DNA of 48,708 nucleotides, taken from contig SVJP01000003.1 of assembly GCA_015068925.1 (NCBI GenBank), positions 1-48,708 on the forward strand, written 5' to 3'. The notes beneath the pieces were generated by a model. The model worked only from the letters and a program-made list of their open reading frames with translations, was not told the DNA's origin and made no database searches. Both the position numbers and the translations under genes were made by a program. The DNA comes from Oscillospiraceae bacterium. Its GTDB lineage: Bacteria; Bacillota; Clostridia; HGM11514. This document shows positions 27,148-39,109 of this stretch, one piece after another. The first letter of the stretch is position 1, and every line of letters begins with the position of its first letter.

Positions 27148-27374
27148 TTTACAAATGCCTTTCATTGTGATATAATTTAAATTGCCAAATCAATTTAAAA
27201 CGTTTTAAATGGGGTATCTATACTCTTTTTTCGCGTACTAAACTTGAGAATTTGTTAAAAATGCAAATTCCATTTAAATTTGTATGGCTTATGCTCTGTT
27301 CAATTTAAATTGGTTTGGCGACTATCGGAGTTTGCGTTTTTGATGCGTCTGCTTCGGTGGGCGTATTTTTTATT
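27148..27374 (+). ncRNA. Structured RNA/attenuator cassette A (promoter, long stem, switch, terminator)
   Basis: TTTACA-17-TATAAT (27148/27171). 18-bp stem 27182-27199 with 27304-27321. AAAAATGCAAATTCC (27257-27271) complementary to GGAGTTTGCGTTTTT (27327-27341). C(TTCG)G-capped terminator 27343-27366 plus T-tract. Confidence 0.7.
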
Positions 27375-27400
27375 AGGAGGAAAAAAAGAAGGGAAATATT

Positions 27401-27673
27401 GTGGATGCATTAGGCAGATTTACCGTTCCTATTAAGTACAGAAAAATCATGAATATCAACCCGGGGGACGAATTGGATGTGGCGTATCAGAATGGAATGT
27501 TATTGGTGAAAAAATTAAGTCAGAGCTGTATTTTTTGTGACAAGGATGAAGAGTTATTCTCTTTTGAAGAACGGATGATTTGTAAAACCTGTTTGGAAAA
27601 ACTAAATGAAAAAAAACAAACAAGAAAGAATAGTGCAAAGGTTTCCATTCGTCGGCATGTAAGGGGACGATAA
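27401..27673 (+). CDS. AbrB/MazE/SpoVT-family regulator, divergent AbrB paralog 1
   Basis: VDALGRFTVPIKYRKIMNI.PGDELDV plus C-terminal CIFC...ICKTC as in clostridial AbrB; start codon uncertain. Confidence 0.85.
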   Translation: MDALGRFTVPIKYRKIMNINPGDELDVAYQNGMLLVKKLSQSCIFCDKDEELFSFEERMICKTCLEKLNEKKQTRKNSAKVSIRRHVRGR

Positions 27674-27674
27674 T

Positions 27675-27717
27675 GAGGGTGTAGCAAACTAATTTTGCTA
27701 CACCTCCATTTCTTTTT
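27675..27717 (+). terminator. Terminator after AbrB paralog 1
   Basis: GGTGTAGCAAA / TTTGCTACACC inverted repeat then TTTCTTTTT. Confidence 0.7.
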
Positions 27718-27792
27718 GGCAAAAACCCTTGACAAAACAGAGAAAAAATGGGATAATAGAAGGGATATGAATTTTGTTTCGGAGGATAGATT

Positions 27793-27975
27793 ATGAAGTA
27801 TGCGGCGGCAGGAATTGTACTTTTAGGTGCATTGCTTTCTTATTTGTCGAAATCCTTGTATCGATGGCTGAAAAAGAGTGAGCCTGAGGAAAAAAGTGTG
27901 CTTAAAATTAAATTTGCAGGACTGGGAATTGTGATGGTCGGCGTTGTACTTTTGTTGATATCGGAAGGAAGGTAA
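27793..27975 (+). CDS. Small two-helix membrane protein upstream of valS
   Basis: GGAGG RBS; TTGACA-17-GATAAT promoter at 27729-27757; two hydrophobic segments. Confidence 0.7.
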
Positions 27976-27988
27976 GGAGGAAGTTTCT

Positions 27989-30625
27989 ATGGAACAAAAA
28001 AACCTGGAAAAGGTATATAATCCGAAAGAATTTGAAGAAAAAATCTATGAAATGTGGAGTGAAAACGGGTATTTCGGTGCTGACCCTGTCAGCAAGAAGG
28101 AAGCATTTTCCATTGTAATTCCCCCTCCCAATGTAACAGGTCAGCTTCATATGGGACATGCTCTTAACGTTACCTTGCAGGATATTCTGGTTCGTTATAA
28201 GAGAATGGCGGGGTTTGAGACCTTGTGGGTTCCCGGCTATGACCATGCAGGGATTGCCACCCAGATTAAAGTGGAAGAAGTTCTTCGGAAAGAAGAGGGT
28301 CTGACCCGTTATGATTTGGGAAGAGAAAAGTTTTTGGACCGTGTTTGGGATTGGAAAAATAAATACGGCAGCACCATTGTAAACCAGATTAAGAGAATGG
28401 GTTGCTCTTGTGACTGGAGCAGAGAACGGTTCACCATGGATGAAGGCTGTTCCAAAGCCGTTCGTCGAGTGTTTGTTGATTTATATGAAAAGGGTCTAAT
28501 CTATCAGGGAAGCCGTATCATCAACTGGTGTCCCAATTGTATCACTGCTCTTTCTGATGCGGAAGTAGAATATCAGGAACAGGCAGGTCATTTTTGGCAC
28601 ATTAAATATCCTGTAAAAGACAGTGATGAATATGTAATTTTGGCAACCACCCGTCCTGAAACCTTGCTGGGTGATACTGCAGTTGCAGTTAACCCCAATG
28701 ATGAAAGATATAAGCATTTGGTTGGTAAAACCTTGATTCTGCCCCTTGTTGGAAGAGAAATTCCTCTCATTGCAGATGATTATGTTGATATGGAATTCGG
28801 TACAGGCGTGGTAAAAATCACCCCTGCTCATGACCCTAACGATTTCGAGGTTGGTCTGCGTCATAATTTAGAGCAGATTAAGGTATTAAATGACGATGCC
28901 ACCGTCAATGAACATGGCGGAAAGTACTGCGGACTGGATAGATATGAAGCCAGAAAGCAGATGGTAAAGGATTTGGAAGAACAGGGTCTTTTGGTGGAAG
29001 TGGAAGACCATGCTCACAATGTTGGTCAGTGCTACCGTTGCGGAACCACGGTAGAACCCATGACCTCCAAGCAATGGTTTGTGAAAATGGAACCTCTGGC
29101 AGTAGAGGCGTTGAGAGTGGTAAAGGACGGCACCATTTCCTTTATTCCCGACCGTTTCTCCAAGACTTACTTAAATTGGATGGAAAATGTGCATGACTGG
29201 TGTATTTCCCGTCAGCTTTGGTGGGGACACAGAATCCCTGCATTCTATTGCGATAAGTGCGGTGAAACCACCGTTTCTGAACACGATATTACCACATGCC
29301 CCAAGTGCGGCGGCAATGTAAAGCAGGACGAGGATGTACTGGATACCTGGTTCAGCTCCGCCCTGTGGCCTTTCTCCACCTTGGGTTGGCCTGAAGATAC
29401 GGAAGAATTGAAAAAATTCTATCCCACAAGCGTATTGGTTACCGCTTACGATATTATCTTCTTCTGGGTTGCAAGAATGATTTTCTCCGGTATGGAGCAG
29501 AAAAAGGAAATGCCCTTCAAACATGTATTCATTCACGGTATCGTCCGTGACGAACAGGGCAGAAAGATGAGTAAATCCTTAGGAAACGGCATTGACCCCT
29601 TAAAGGTCATTGATGAATACGGTACTGATGCACTTCGGTTTACTCTGGTAACAGGCAACTCCCCCGGAAATGACATTCGTTTCTCTTGGGACAGAGTGGC
29701 ATCCAGCCGTAACTTTGCCAACAAGATTTGGAATGCATCCCGTTTTGTGCTGATGAACCTGAATGTGGACAGCTGTGATTTGCCCGACGAAAGCTTGTTG
29801 CAAACCGAAGATAAATGGATTTTGAGCCGTCTGAATAAGGTTGCAGCACAGGTAAACGAAAACCTGGATAAATACGAATTGGGTATTGCATCTGCAAACC
29901 TTTACGACTTTATCTGGGATGAATTCTGCGATTGGTACATTGAATTGGTAAAACCCCGTTTGTACGGTGAAGATAAGGATGCCAATGAAAGTGCACAACG
30001 AGTGCTTTGCTATGTGCTTTCCAAAACCTTGTGTCTGCTTCATCCCTTCATGCCCTTCATCACCGAAGAAATTTGGCAATGTCTGCCTCACGGCGAGGAA
30101 GAAAGCATTATGGTTCAGGCATATCCTACCTATTCTGATGCTTTGTCCTTTGAGCAGGAAGAAAATAAGATGGAGCAAATCATGCAGATGATTAAGAGCA
30201 TCCGTAACCTTCGTTCCGAAATGAACGTTCCTCCGTCCCGTAAAGCACAGGTGATGGTGGTAACAGAAGCATCCGATGTGTTTGGTTCTGCTTCCCCCTT
30301 CTTTGAAAAGCTGTGTTCTGCAAGCGGATTGACTGTTTTGGCAGACGAAAGCGGAATCCCCGAGGATACCGTATCTGTTGTCATCCCCGGTGCAAAAGCA
30401 TTCCTGCCCTTGGGCGAATTGGTGGACAAGCAGAAGGAACTGGAACGTCTGGAAAAGGAAAAATCCCGTCTGGAAGATGAAATCAAACGAGTTGACGGCA
30501 AACTGGCAAACGAAAAGTTTGTTTCCAAAGCACCTGCTCACTTGGTAGAACAAGAACGAGAAAAGAAACAAAAATATCAGGAAATGCTGGATGAAATATT
30601 GGCAAGCATTGAAAAGATGAAATAA
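27989..30625 (+). CDS. valS: Valine--tRNA ligase
   Basis: [30 protein letters not shown]-terminal coiled-coil arm. Confidence 0.98.
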
Positions 30626-30639
30626 AACTACAAGATGAA

Positions 30640-30731
30640 GAACCGTCAGGGTTATCCCGGCGGTTCTTTTTGTTTGGGGCCTTTCGACGCGGAAATAAAA
30701 AAAAGCCTCCCTCCTCATAGAGGAGGGCTTG
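30640..30731. terminator. Back-to-back terminators for valS (+) and AbrB paralog 2 (-)
   Basis: AAGAACCGTCAGGG-TTAT-CCCGGCGGTTCTT plus T-tract; A-tract followed by CCCTCCTC-ATA-GAGGAGGG. Confidence 0.75.
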
Positions 30732-30745
30732 TAAAACAGAAGCCT

Positions 30746-30979
30746 CTACCAATGTTTTTCTGTTAATTTTTTCAAACATTCTCTGCAGACGGCTCGTTCT
30801 TCAAAAAAAAATAAATCCTCTGTGCCGTCACAAAAAACACAACCTTGCCCTGCCTTTTTAATCACCAAAGCACCCTTTTGGCAGGTAACATCCAATTCGT
30901 CTCCGTGATTGATATTCAACATTCTTCTGAACTTGACGGGAATCACAAATCTTCCCAAAGAATCCACTTCGTTTCTCAT
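30746..30979 (-). CDS. AbrB/MazE/SpoVT-family regulator, divergent AbrB paralog 2
   Basis: GGAGGAG RBS, ATG 30979; VDSLGRFVIPVKFRRMLNINHGDELDV...CVFC...VCREC; clearly paralogous to 27401-27673. Confidence 0.85.
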   Translation of the reverse strand: MRNEVDSLGRFVIPVKFRRMLNINHGDELDVTCQKGALVIKKAGQGCVFCDGTEDLFFFEERAVCRECLKKLTEKHW

Positions 30980-30995
30980 AAAAACTCCTCCAAAC

Positions 30996-31228
30996 AATAA
31001 AAAATGCGCCTACCGAAGCAGACGCATAAAAACGCAAACTCCGATAGTCGCGAAACCAATTAAAACAAAAGGGATAATCATGTTACCACATTTGATGGAA
31101 TTTGCATTTTTTCCAACATAAAATATGGTAACAAAAATAAAGCATATTTAATCAAAAATATCCCTTTTTTTGTTTATTTTAAATCAGTTTCGCATAATTA
31201 TTATATCACATTTTTTAAACTTTATCAA
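30996..31228 (-). ncRNA. Structured RNA/attenuator cassette B
   Basis: TTGATA-17-TATAAT (31228/31205). Stem 31193-31178 with 31065-31050, inner stems 31173-31159 with 31076-31065 and 31132-31121 with 31093-31082. Same AAAAATGCAAATTCC / GGAGTTTGCGTTTTT pair and TTCG terminator as cassette A. Confidence 0.7.
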
Positions 31229-31246
31229 TACTTATTTATAAATTAT

Positions 31247-31295
31247 ACGAAAAATTCGTGGCAAAGGCTCCGGCTCACCTGGTAGAACAAGAACG
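31247..31295 (+). repeat. Diverged duplicate of valS 3' segment (candidate att-site scar)
   Basis: 40/49 identical to 30510-30558; encodes [16 protein letters not shown] versus val[17 protein letters not shown]. Confidence 0.85.
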
Positions 31296-31313
31296 GGGTA
31301 TTTATTTTTTGTA

Positions 31314-31570
31314 TTGTAATTTAAAATGGAATGTGGTATAATATAGTTACCACATTTTTTACTTTAATTTAATATGCCAATGAACCCATACCAATTATTG
31401 TATGTATATTTGGGGGACAAGGTCATACGCTATAGTAAAAAGCGTATGCTCTTCTCTTTGTCATAGCCTTGTCCTCATGAGCATATGGTAAGTAAAAAGT
31501 GTGGTAACTTTTGAGAGAGCCCCTGCGTTTTTTAGGTGCGTGGCTCTGCAAAGGGTTACGCACTTTTTTA
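31314..31570 (+). ncRNA. Structured RNA/attenuator cassette C
   Basis: TTGTAA-17-TATAAT (31314/31337). 19-bp stem 31345-31363 with 31491-31509; inner stem 31413-31423 with 31466-31476; hairpin 31424-31448; GCAA-capped terminator 31535-31564 plus T-tract. Confidence 0.7.
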
Positions 31571-31579
31571 TTTTTTATA

Positions 31580-31826
31580 TTGTAATTTTAAATTGGATGT
31601 GATATAATATATTTGCTACAAACTTTTACTATTTTAAATACAGACAAGTTTATATTTTTATGCCTAGAGGGTACGCTATCTTTGCAAAAAGGCGTACACT
31701 CTTGTTTCGTCATACCTCTAGGCAACTAGTCTGTGTTATGAGTAAAAGTGTGTAGCAACATTTGAAACAGAGTCACTTCGCTTTTTTGGTGCGTGGCTCT
31801 GCGAAGGGTTACGCACTTTTTTTATT
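31580..31826 (+). ncRNA. Structured RNA/attenuator cassette D (tandem paralog of C, 266-bp period)
   Basis: TTGTAA-17-TATAAT (31580/31603). Stem 31613-31630 with 31741-31758; inner stems 31637-31645 with 31729-31737 and 31661-31670 with 31715-31724; hairpin 31671-31697; GCGA-capped terminator 31788-31817 plus T-tract. Confidence 0.7.
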
Positions 31827-38121: not shown

Positions 38122-38233
38122 GGATGTCTTCAGGGCAGGGTGAAATTCCCGATCGGCGGTAAAGTCCGCAAGCGTTTTGCATGATTTGGTGTGATTCCAA
38201 AACCGACAGTATAGTCTGGATGAAAGAAGATGA
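38122..38233 (+). ncRNA. FMN riboswitch (RFN element)
   Basis: TCTTCAGGGCAGGGTGAAATTCCCGATCGGCGGT...CCGACAGTATAGTCTGGATGAAAGAAGA. TTGACA/TATAAT promoter upstream; terminator CACCTGAAT/ATTCAGGTG downstream. Confidence 0.95.
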
Positions 38234-38309
38234 GGAAATTTGCCTTATTGCACCTGAATGACCATTGATTCAGGTGTTTGTTATTGTAAAAAGAAAGGGG
38301 AATTTCATA

Positions 38310-39032: not shown

Positions 39033-39109
<77 letters not shown>

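Follow-up and report, generated by a model that had tools for sequence, protein, structure and literature searches.

A large family of promoter-to-terminator RNA cassettes with covarying, mutually exclusive helices in uncultured gut Clostridia

Four cassettes (A–D) in a 48,708-nucleotide stretch of Oscillospiraceae DNA (the window) are members of one large, previously unlisted RNA-switch family of uncultured gut Clostridia. The family's helices covary, its terminator and antiterminator are mutually exclusive, and most units lie directly in front of a gene. We consider it probable (about 0.62) that the units are promoter-proximal conditional terminators working in cis, with anti-antiterminator, antiterminator and terminator states, that serve a heterogeneous regulon.

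The original prediction had counted four units, a number that grew to 17 full copies, A–D included, across the 2.2-Mb source genome. A covariance model run against Clostridia genomes, as the prediction had proposed, detected members in 42 of 150 sampled genomes of the class, with a maximum of 22 copies per genome. Family matches occur in 15 of 41 relatives, and an exact-pattern scan matched at least 120 stretches, all of them in MAGs of gut or rumen Clostridia. Mean column identity between copies is about 51–65%, and both unit length (140 to 231 nt) and inner architecture are variable. The prediction had also recognized no named RNA family, and Rfam 15 bears this out for the window, the units and 18 loci of relatives. 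In the window, Rfam matched only FMN (38122–38235) and tRNA (39033–39106), neither on a unit; searching the units at E up to 10 gave 25 and 8 matches, all far under the gathering score (the best at 22 bits versus 48 and 20.9 versus 73); and the 18 loci of relatives (89,722 bases) yielded nine tRNA matches and one drum RNA match, none on a unit. Units have gyrA and valS as neighbors in the window, where unit B lies inside a 737-bp segment flanked by a duplicated piece of valS. Tandem units occur as the C–D pair and as 3.5 units in L064, and one array adjoins a drum RNA gene.

All four window units have the predicted promoter, with a 17-bp spacer and a TG ahead of the −10 box, and the predicted terminator, a stem closed by a 4-nt loop and followed by a T tail (Table 1). 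When RNAs beginning immediately 3′ of the −10 box were folded, the expected 5′ stem (P1) started 1–3 nt into the RNA and closed about 139–163 nt; these folds are far more stable than those of shuffled sequences (z of −5.3, −6.0, −7.7 and −8.9 for A, B, C and D, with 0 of 200 shuffles as stable). The apical segment (a), its target (a′) and the strings for alternative pairing were likewise all located in A–D, where the a:a′ duplexes range from −18.5 to −19.5 kcal/mol; over the 17 source-genome copies, their z against shuffled targets runs from −2.2 to −7.5.

Table 1. Coordinates of the parts of units A–D and of the genes behind them (window numbering)
Unit	Feature	Position	Strand	Basis
A	Promoter, TTTACA, 17-nt spacer, TG-extended TATAAT	27148–27176	+	promoter scan
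A	P1 5′ strand	27182–27202	+	fold
A	Apical segment a (A5 run + 10 nt), partly in local hairpin	27257–27271	+	fold
A	P1 3′ strand	27301–27321	+	fold
A	Linker + target a′ (a′ = 27327–27341)	27322–27341	+	duplex with a, −18.5 kcal/mol
A	Antiterminator 5′ strand, pairs with 27351–27360	27322–27331	+	
A	Terminator T2 (stem 27342–27367, UUCG loop) + U tail	27342–27374	+	
A	Gene: SpoVT/AbrB-type (MazE_antitoxin) domain + Cys-rich C-terminal part, 90 aa	27401–27673	+	
B	Promoter, TTGATA-17-TATAAT, TG upstream of −10	31200–31228	−	promoter scan
B	P1 5′ strand	31172–31193	−	fold
B	Apical segment a	31097–31112	−	
B	P1 3′ strand	31049–31070	−	fold
B	Linker + target a′ (a′ = 31028–31042)	31028–31047	−	duplex, −18.6 kcal/mol
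B	Antiterminator 5′ strand	31038–31047	−	
B	Terminator T2 (31004–31027, 4-nt loop) + U tail	30996–31027	−	
B	Gene: SpoVT/AbrB-type domain + Cys-rich C-terminal part	30746–30976	−	
C	Promoter, TTGTAA-17-TATAAT, TG upstream of −10	31314–31342	+	promoter scan
C	P1 5′ strand	31346–31364	+	fold
C	Apical segment a	31437–31456	+	
C	P1 3′ strand	31490–31508	+	fold
C	Target a′	31513–31533	+	duplex, −19.5 kcal/mol
C	Terminator T2 (stem 31534–31565, 4-nt loop) + U tail	31534–31570	+	
D	Promoter, TTGTAA-17-TATAAT, TG upstream of −10	31580–31608	+	promoter scan
D	P1 5′ strand	31613–31630	+	fold
D	Apical segment a	31686–31708	+	
D	P1 3′ strand	31741–31758	+	fold
D	Target a′	31764–31787	+	duplex, −19.2 kcal/mol
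D	Terminator T2 (stem 31788–31817, 4-nt loop) + U tail	31788–31826	+	
D	Gene: YpsA/SLOG-like, 179 aa	31835–32374	+	domain search

Covariation supports P1, the terminator and the long-range apical:target helix. P1 encloses a but not a′, which makes this last helix a pseudoknot over P1. In the model alignment of 93 members, pairing of a:a′ reaches 91.7%, 10 of its 15 pairs have changes on both sides, and none of 500 shuffles does as well. We also aligned 43 short units with MAFFT, which is not fitted to structure, and obtained 93.4% pairing for P1 (both sides changed in 11 of 12 pairs), 90.5% for a:a′ (10 of 15) and 97% for T2; again 0 of 500 shuffles were equal, and slid controls were 37–52% paired. 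The many G-U pairs place the constraint on this RNA strand. Duplex energies across 87 units tell the same way for cognate versus non-cognate strands: −18.5 versus −8.7 kcal/mol for P1, −18.2 versus −13.8 for a:a′ and −17.4 versus −13.1 for the antiterminator. The apical and target segments had been described as copy-specific; they do covary, but they also share a family consensus and so are not purely copy-specific.

The proposed three-state architecture, in which apical segment and terminator are alternative partners of the target, held up, and all of its helices covary. When the platform is folded with a′ free, 60 of 89 units are predicted to form the antiterminator, 28 the terminator and one a mixture. 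In units A and B, the antiterminator fold (−19.9 and −23.0 kcal/mol) outweighs T2 (−12.4 alone and −14.4) when a′ is free, indicating that sequestration of a′ is what permits T2. In C and D, the terminator wins despite a free a′ (T2 of unit C alone, −20.2 kcal/mol), and the 28 units of this kind may be constitutive terminators that yield small RNAs.

Genes follow most units closely. In 56 of 69 units, an ORF of 60 aa or longer on the same strand begins no more than 80 nt past the terminator (median distance 20.5 nt), compared with 11 of 52 in the opposite-direction control. Within the window, this applies to A, B and D; no gene lies behind C, and D begins 10 nt further on. The gene after unit B matches PF04014 above the cut-off (26.9 bits), its counterpart after unit A does so below it (E 3e-4, with a weak DUF4428 match), and the gene after unit D falls slightly under the 27.7 cut-off for PF06908 at 26.8 bits. 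The downstream genes are varied (BspA-type LRR, zinc ribbon, collagen-like, dockerin, AbrB/MazE, YpsA and AMP-binding proteins) and encode mostly surface proteins, a heterogeneity that fits the expectation for a regulon. At the sequence level, the units combine a promoter-proximal intrinsic terminator, an exclusive antiterminator and a gene downstream, as attenuators do.

In the mechanism we favor, the switch would operate during transcription and in cis. The strong extended −10 promoter would start an RNA whose first bases pair with a strand about 140–160 nt downstream to form P1; a′, directly 3′ of the P1 3′ strand and ending in an invariant U5 run, would emerge before T2. In the OFF state, a′ would pair with a (an invariant A5 run and some 10 further nt) in a pseudoknot that could stack on P1, leaving T2 to form and stop transcription; by occupying a′, the a:a′ helix frees T2 and is in this sense an anti-antiterminator. 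In the ON state, a′ would instead pair with the T2 5′ strand, loop and inner 3′ strand as an antiterminator hairpin, and the gene behind would be read. The input would act by changing how accessible a is; this segment sits in a local hairpin and is more conserved in sequence than pairing demands. One such input would be common to the whole regulon, and we favor a protein or RNA whose hold on the apical motif would permit read-through. Against the cis-attenuator reading, the pseudoknot would have to span a long, partly rod-like domain that is assumed to fold back, tandem units each with its own promoter are unusual for leaders, the terminator prevails in 28 of 89 units even when a′ is unoccupied, and 4 of the 17 units in the source genome have no gene behind them. 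The invariance of five A-U pairs, and a covariation signal that trans pairing would equally produce, also count against it.

Some gene-less orphan units suggest a further layer, which we regard as possible but hold only tentatively: RNAs of orphan units and of at least one further locus would act in trans on the attenuators by complementing the P1 3′ strand, linker and a′ of other units. Past the terminator, such orphans carry a micro-ORF ending in Phe-Pro-stop and, directly downstream of it, an antisense element, one contiguous complement of the P1-3′-plus-target strand in other units, A and B among them. The micro-ORFs (MERFP*, (V)SIFTVP*, MSISWFP*, (V)KLLSFP* and MRIFDFP*) stand behind AAAGGAGG in five of six such orphans, the sixth having lost its start codon, and related orphans have different elements in the same order of parts. 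By capturing nascent a′, the element would impose termination on particular targets, for the most part AbrB-type gene leaders; the micro-ORF stop codon opens the A run of the element, so that a terminating ribosome could mask it. The best partners within the source genome were unit B for the P extension (−36.6 kcal/mol, 36 pairs; equaled by 1 of 150 random genomic windows), unit A for O (−33.9 kcal/mol; 5 of 150), unit C for Q (−32.2 kcal/mol; 8 of 150) and unit I for C157:7760–7889(−) (−37.7 kcal/mol; 1 of 150). Other genomes gave comparable pairs (G004_C294 extension with G004_C121, −43.0; G002_C28 with G002_C41, −36.1; G004_C132 with L060, −32.3), against best means of −21 to −23 for shuffled extensions, although one shuffle of G004_C132 reached −36.1. 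Individually, these matches are only moderately unusual against a background mean of −26.1 (sd 3.5, minimum −39.2), and conservation of the targets means that partners are not unique (the median of the P extension over all targets is −30.6). The elements could also be remnants of inverted partial copies, and the sample is seven loci chosen after the pattern had been noticed.

A metabolite or ion riboswitch, with a pocket built from P1 and the a:a′ pseudoknot, is unlikely. In its favor, five A-U pairs of a:a′ are invariant while neighboring pairs covary, for which plain pairing is not a sufficient explanation; a U·A-U triplex on the A5:U5 run could account for them, and additional U runs are present 3′ of a and, in some units, 5′ of it as well. 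Copy number and a mixed, surface-protein-rich regulon resemble those of riboswitches as well. The triplex is nevertheless conjectural, the helix of the 5′ U run being 78% paired with shuffles often equally good. Moreover, little is conserved outside the segments that pair in the alternative helices, with sequence logos near zero between a and the P1 3′ strand, and the variable length and inner architecture of the units also speak against it.

Trans action by the units themselves, as the original prediction preferred, appears quite improbable. In that model, each unit's terminated 150–230-nt RNA would use its apical segment to pair with nascent targets of the same type, giving autoregulation or immunity with at least three orthogonal specificities. 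The covariation within units would be identical for cis pairing and for RNAs of the same locus pairing in trans, strong promoters and tandem copies would supply much RNA, and precedent exists among attenuator-derived RNAs acting in trans, such as rnTrpL (PMC6614838). Specificity, however, is poor: an apical segment pairs best with its cognate target in only 2 of 17 source-genome units and 11 of 87 units overall, and only type 1 apical segments favor their own targets (−16.4 versus −11.3 and −9.2), types 2 and 3 pairing about equally with all. A terminated RNA should have its a already taken up by its own a′, and cis pairing would hold the kinetic advantage; the units also stand ahead of unrelated chromosomal genes, outside any phage or plasmid immunity region. 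The steric case for acting in trans, that the apical segment lies at the tip of a rod, is weak, judging from predicted folds in which the apical hairpin of unit A stands in a multiloop on single-stranded linkers and the rods of C and D are interrupted by several internal loops. Dedicated antisense elements in other transcripts could be a separate route to trans control.

Very improbable, finally, are free-standing small-RNA genes with incidental read-through or, as another option, a MITE-like mobile repeat: the promoter and terminator in every unit, the tandem arrays, the gene-less units, the drum RNA neighbor and the valS-bounded segment around unit B would suit them, but the ORF proximity described above and a conserved, covarying antiterminator would not, and the low identity of the copies, with compensatory and G-U changes, argues against recent transposition and protein-recognized inverted repeats. 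Near-identical copies with terminal repeats, as in a MITE, were not what we found, the P1 strands themselves varying by compensatory and G-U changes.

Among known systems, the cis-attenuator reading resembles the PyrR-controlled pyr leaders of Bacillus, in which an anti-antiterminator helix sequesters the 5′ strand of the antiterminator. The three-state logic is the same, sequestration letting the terminator form, whereas the pyr anti-antiterminator is a local protein-bound hairpin and ours a long-range pseudoknot whose apical segment lies about 55–95 nt upstream. The PyrR binding site (RF00515) had no Rfam match on the units or the 18 loci of relatives, and no pyr genes lie downstream. T-box leaders likewise come in many copies per genome, have an extended 5′ stem domain and choose between antiterminator and terminator through an interaction with a distant part of the leader; they differ in their genes, since no aminoacyl-tRNA synthetase or amino-acid genes lie behind the units and the valS of the window has no unit. 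T-box (RF00230) gave no match at E up to 10, nor any in the 18 loci of relatives.

The phage P4 CI and P1 C4 RNAs derive from leaders, pair with sites in the operon they come from and either terminate transcription early or block translation; P4 has one segment whose complement occurs at two repeated sites. Here too, RNA-RNA pairing within or between leader transcripts would decide termination, and in a subset of units a has a second complement besides a′, a U-run strand upstream. Unlike these phage RNAs, our units are chromosomal, number 17 or more and precede unrelated genes, with no phage context seen; no c4 or P4 CI-type antisense RNA matched the window or the units in Rfam, and the window neighbors are gyrA and valS. 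The replication genes of pT181, pIP501 and pAMbeta1 are controlled by countertranscript-driven attenuation, with the antisense RNA transcribed from the other strand of that locus. The antisense elements, if functional, would resemble these systems in that a separate RNA pairs with the nascent leader and favors its terminator, with the difference that the candidates are located elsewhere, downstream of another unit and a micro-ORF.

Promoters, terminators, and 5′ stems were all found where the original prediction had placed them in the four switch-RNA cassettes of the window (units A–D). A promoter scan returned four sigma-70-type promoters with a 17-nt spacer and a TG-extended TATAAT, four terminator-like hairpins with 4-nt loops lie at the predicted ends, and the 5′ stem (P1) begins 1–3 nt into the folded RNA and closes ~139–163 nt in 4/4 units. 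Folded from immediately past the −10 box to the U tail, the RNAs of A–D have z values of −5.3 to −8.9, with 0/200 shuffles as stable. Every apical, target, and alternative-pairing string that had been quoted was located in the sequence, and the duplexes between apical segment (a) and target (a′) amount to −18.5 to −19.5 kcal/mol. The apical segment had been placed at the far tip of a long rod, but it does not cap a rigid one: that of unit A hangs in a multiloop, and several internal loops interrupt the rod of C and D. The inner helix of unit B resembles the P1 stem of C-type units, which gives the impression of one unit inside another. The window also holds a 23-nt direct repeat family that spans the −10/+1 region of unit C, with a look-alike on the antisense strand within unit B.

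Coordinates of the switch units and of features near them or in related loci (window positions unless a contig or locus is named)
Feature	Coordinates	Strand	Start	Remarks
Unit A	27148–27374	+	27148	Gene behind: AbrB/MazE-type protein with Cys-rich tail
Unit B	30996–31228	−	31228	Gene behind: AbrB/MazE-type protein with Cys-rich tail
Unit C	31314–31570	+	31314	Unit D behind
Unit D	31580–31826	+	31580	Gene behind: YpsA-like protein, score just below Pfam cut-off
23-nt direct repeat family	31071–31093, 31191–31213, 31335–31357			
valS	27989–30625			
Promoter-like site upstream of valS	27729–27757			
ORF upstream of valS	27793–27975			60 aa, seemingly hydrophobic
valS 3′ part	30510–30558			
Direct repeat of valS 3′ part	31247–31295			82% identical, 737 nt downstream of the real one
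FMN riboswitch	38122–38235			109.6 bits; unrelated to switch family
tRNA gene	39033–39106			Unrelated to switch family
drum RNA (RF02958), locus of a relative	L064:635–752			76.3 bits; own promoter and terminator
Partial unit with antisense, own genome	C157:7760–7917	−		Promoter and 5′ half of unit
Antisense stretch, own genome	C157:7760–7889	−		Best match unit I, −37.7
blastn-short matches, own genome	C168:1105–1133, C157:7799–7832			

Several neighboring features lie close to units. The repeat copy of the valS 3′ part still translates (16 residues), and between the two copies lie the valS 3′ end with its terminator, an AbrB-type gene, and unit B; this segment looks like an insertion that replaced the valS end. 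No T-box matched upstream of valS at the Rfam gathering score, the one threshold applied. In a relative, the drum RNA stands directly upstream of a tandem array of one terminator-only remnant and three full units, and tRNA genes lie within ~150–1100 nt of units in four loci (L066, L096, L098, and L101).

Units of the family share their parts in a common order: an extended −10 promoter, P1 from ~+2, a variable interior, the apical motif, the P1 3′ strand, a 2–6-nt linker, the target, and directly after it the terminator (T2), with a whole-unit length of 140–231 nt (median 172). The apical motif reads roughly UUGGU-A5-UGCA-nn-CUCU-n-UUUU, the target consensus is (G/A)GAG-nn-UGCG-U5, and the terminator 5′ strand nearly always starts with RUGC. 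The a:a′ helix is a pseudoknot, since P1 encloses a but not a′. The P1 3′ strand, linker, and a′ make up one continuous "decision strand" with a split complement: one piece is the RNA's own 5′ end, the other the apical segment, and the P1 and a:a′ helices could thus stack end to end. A leader peptide within the rod was considered and rejected: the one ORF (30 aa) is in unit C and has no SD-like sequence, and none was seen there in the other units read.

Covariation in P1, a:a′, and T2 bore out this architecture. We gathered 90 units independently of the exact sequence pattern (17 from the genome itself, 31 from relatives' loci in a 41-genome search, and 42 fetched by place). In the model-fitted alignment (93 matches, 92 distinct), pairing stands at 91.7% in a:a′ (10/15 pairs changed on both sides) and at 99.8% in the outer T2 stem, and none of 500 shuffles attains the observed values; with the partner slid by 1–3 columns, 43–62% is paired, vs 94.0% for the whole structure unslid. 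Since such an alignment leans towards its model, a second was made with MAFFT alone. Out of 60 units of ≤186 nt, 11 were dropped by script when the guessed 5′ end gave no P1, and 6 more were left out (guessed start seemingly truncated, or C/D type). In the resulting alignment of 43 full-length short units, pairing reaches 93.4% in P1 (11/12 pairs changed on both sides), 90.5% in a:a′ (10/15), and 97% in T2, with 0/500 shuffles as good and slid controls at 37–52%. Five A-U pairs at the A5:U5 junction are invariant in both alignments (92 and 43 sequences) while neighboring pairs covary freely, and pairs 2 and 3 of the T2 stem (U-A, G-C) are near-invariant. Plain pairing does not account for this conservation; a role of the U run in pausing or termination, or a triplex, are our guesses for the A-U pairs.

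Pairing energies were compared across 87 of the 90 units, leaving out one without an A run and two without a promoter guess. Cognate duplexes are stronger than non-cognate ones for P1 (−18.5 vs −8.7 kcal/mol), a:a′ (−18.2 vs −13.8), the antiterminator (−17.4 vs −13.1), and a local upstream helix, P3 (−7.8 vs −5.1); a few segment anchors are visibly mis-set, which only weakens the cognate figures. As a family-wide feature, P3, an upstream U-run "decoy" helix, was rejected (78% paired, 2/9 pairs changed on both sides, shuffles often equal), and it is retained as a feature of a subset of units only.

The family extends well beyond the window. Using the genome's own copies, nhmmer found 17 full units on 13 contigs of its assembly (2.18 Mb, 86% complete) and a partial one on contig C157. 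A covariance model (R1) covering the apical segment through the terminator matched 15/41 relatives, with 6/6 other genomes of the genus and 9/11 of the family, and 42/150 genomes sampled from the class in 27/107 genera, with a maximum per genome of at least 22; in this class sample 23 candidates were scored per genome, and the counts are a lower bound. The exact pattern (P1 3′ strand plus target) occurs in at least 120 stretches of the species-representative collection. Among the matches listed, 120/120 records are MAGs from gut or rumen, with labels including Oscillospiraceae, Acutalibacteraceae, Christensenellaceae, Faecousia, Ca. Fimenecus, Ca. Scatosoma, Ructibacterium, Eubacterium sp. CAG:180, Clostridia bacterium, and Eubacteriales bacterium. 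At the gathering score, Rfam 15 placed no family on any unit of the window or of 18 loci of relatives, in agreement with the view that this is no named RNA family, and scanning the units at E up to 10 gave nothing credible; weak L20-leader matches at the C and D terminators (16–20 bits vs 58.7) were taken as noise.

The alternative to T2 is an antiterminator hairpin that joins the linker and distal a′ to the T2 loop and inner 3′ strand, and UGCG of a′ to RUGC in the T2 5′ strand. Folding of the platform with a′ free gave the antiterminator in 60/89 units, T2 in 28/89, and a mixed form in 1/89. The antiterminator outweighs T2 alone in units A (−19.9 vs −12.4) and B (−23.0 vs −14.4), and capture of a′ by a (−18.5) would therefore permit termination; in units C and D, T2 (−20.2, −19.5) wins regardless. 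RUG, conserved where T2 begins and 11–12 nt past GGAG of a′, was considered as a start codon; we judged that its conservation follows from pairing, since RUGC forms pairs in both T2 and the antiterminator. A same-strand ORF of ≥60 aa starts ≤80 nt past the terminator (median 20.5 nt) in 56/69 pattern-found units with sufficient downstream sequence, compared to 11/52 in a control looking away from the promoter, and an SD-like tetramer is found at 46/56 of these ORFs. Pfam assignments of 58 downstream ORFs were mixed: BspA-type LRR (5), zinc ribbon (4), LRR_8 (3), and two each of AMP-binding, collagen, Listeria-Bacteroides repeat, DUF4234, MazE/AbrB, YpsA, and dockerin.

The original prediction suggested that the apical segment may pair in trans, which would give an RNA-only autoregulation or immunity circuit with at least three specificity types. 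The types exist as sequence classes but lack orthogonality: an apical segment pairs best with its cognate target in 2/17 units of the genome itself and 11/87 overall, and only type-1 apical segments discriminate between target types. Given non-orthogonal types and no rigid-rod tip, pairing in cis is the default reading; homotypic pairing in trans is compatible with the same covariation.

As to what such a cis attenuator would sense, there is little conservation outside the pairing segments, which argues against a classical metabolite pocket, and we favor a shared factor that would act on the apical motif. The AbrB-type protein was rejected as a universal trans partner: relatives of the unit B protein occur in 31/41 genomes vs 15/41 for the RNA, with no tracking between them, and its close paralogues are limited to its own genus among the 41 genomes. 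Hfq was rejected as an obligatory helper, being present in 27/41 genomes and not found in five RNA carriers that are 94–100% complete (G013, G018, G021, G027, and G037).

Four of the 17 units of the genome (N, O, P, and Q) are orphans, with no gene behind them. Past the terminator, O, P, Q, and three units of relatives (G004_C132, G004_C294, and G002_C28) carry the same parts in the same order: a complement of the same unit's P1 3′ strand and distal a′; AAAGGAGG; a 5–7-codon ORF ending Phe-Pro-stop (in one case Val-Pro-stop); and, from the stop codon on, an A run, an a-like stretch, and a P1-5′-like stretch. This last part is one contiguous complement of the decision strand of other units. The peptides, each followed by a stop, are MERFP, (V)SIFTVP, MSISWFP, (V)KLLSFP, and MRIFDFP; the ORF of unit O has no start codon. 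The micro-ORFs sit behind a strong SD, on contigs C218, C1, and C168 (downstream of O, P, and Q) and at loci L220, L209, and L234.

The best partners of the P, O, and Q extensions within the genome are units B (−36.6, 36 pairs), A (−33.9), and C (−32.2), respectively. Among 150 random 130-nt genome windows (background −26.1, sd 3.5), 1, 5, 8, and 1 do as well for the B, A, C, and I matches, the last being that of the C157 stretch. For the orphan extensions of two other genomes, the best partners within the same genome reach −43.0, −36.1, and −32.3, with shuffled means of −21 to −23 and one shuffle attaining −36.1. The loci were chosen after the pattern had been noticed, and each match, taken singly, is only moderately unusual. 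Chance is nonetheless an unlikely origin, because the order of parts is common to the orphans and the antisense is fixed in place after the micro-ORF. In the partial unit on C157, the apical segment continues directly into antisense of the P1 3′ strand and target of unit I, with an SD and a small ORF next. For a free-standing partner RNA, a fuzzy motif search gave mostly noise and no clear locus, blastn-short gave only the two matches on C168 and C157, and nhmmer with the decision strand gave C168 only.

A more far-reaching reading, which we consider unlikely on present evidence, is that the family forms an RNA-RNA network. The decision strand of each leader would normally be read by its split complement, and dedicated RNAs from elsewhere would capture it with the same complement fused in one strand. 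Translation of the 5–7-codon ORF ending Phe-Pro-stop would control how available this fused strand is, such that translation status or ribosome stalling would pass through an RNA-only relay to early termination of specific leaders, potentially including those of the AbrB-type regulator genes behind A and B.

If the cis attenuator reading is correct, the catalogues still lack a regulatory RNA that is among the more widespread ones in gut and rumen Clostridia, and annotation of thousands of MAGs would improve. The family would define a regulon in organisms never grown, pointing to a global signal, with cell-surface, zinc-ribbon, and regulator genes behind its units. It would also offer a compact natural design (a split complement, a pseudoknot as anti-antiterminator, and possibly matched trans antisense RNAs) of potential use in RNA engineering.

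Literature word searches returned no description of such an element, and the text of PMC8040213 and of 2026 bioRxiv preprints held no match; these searches covered text, and supplementary motif lists might hold one. PyrR leaders are nearest to the family in logic, T-box leaders are nearest in scale, and the closest RNA-RNA parallels are P4 CI and P1 C4; by Rfam and gene context, the units belong to none of these families. In its logic, the family follows known terminator attenuators that use an anti-antiterminator. What sets the family apart is a pseudoknotted, split-complement anti-antiterminator, a promoter of its own for each unit, tandem occurrence (C–D, and 3.5 units behind the drum RNA gene in L064), and, possibly, matched antisense elements.
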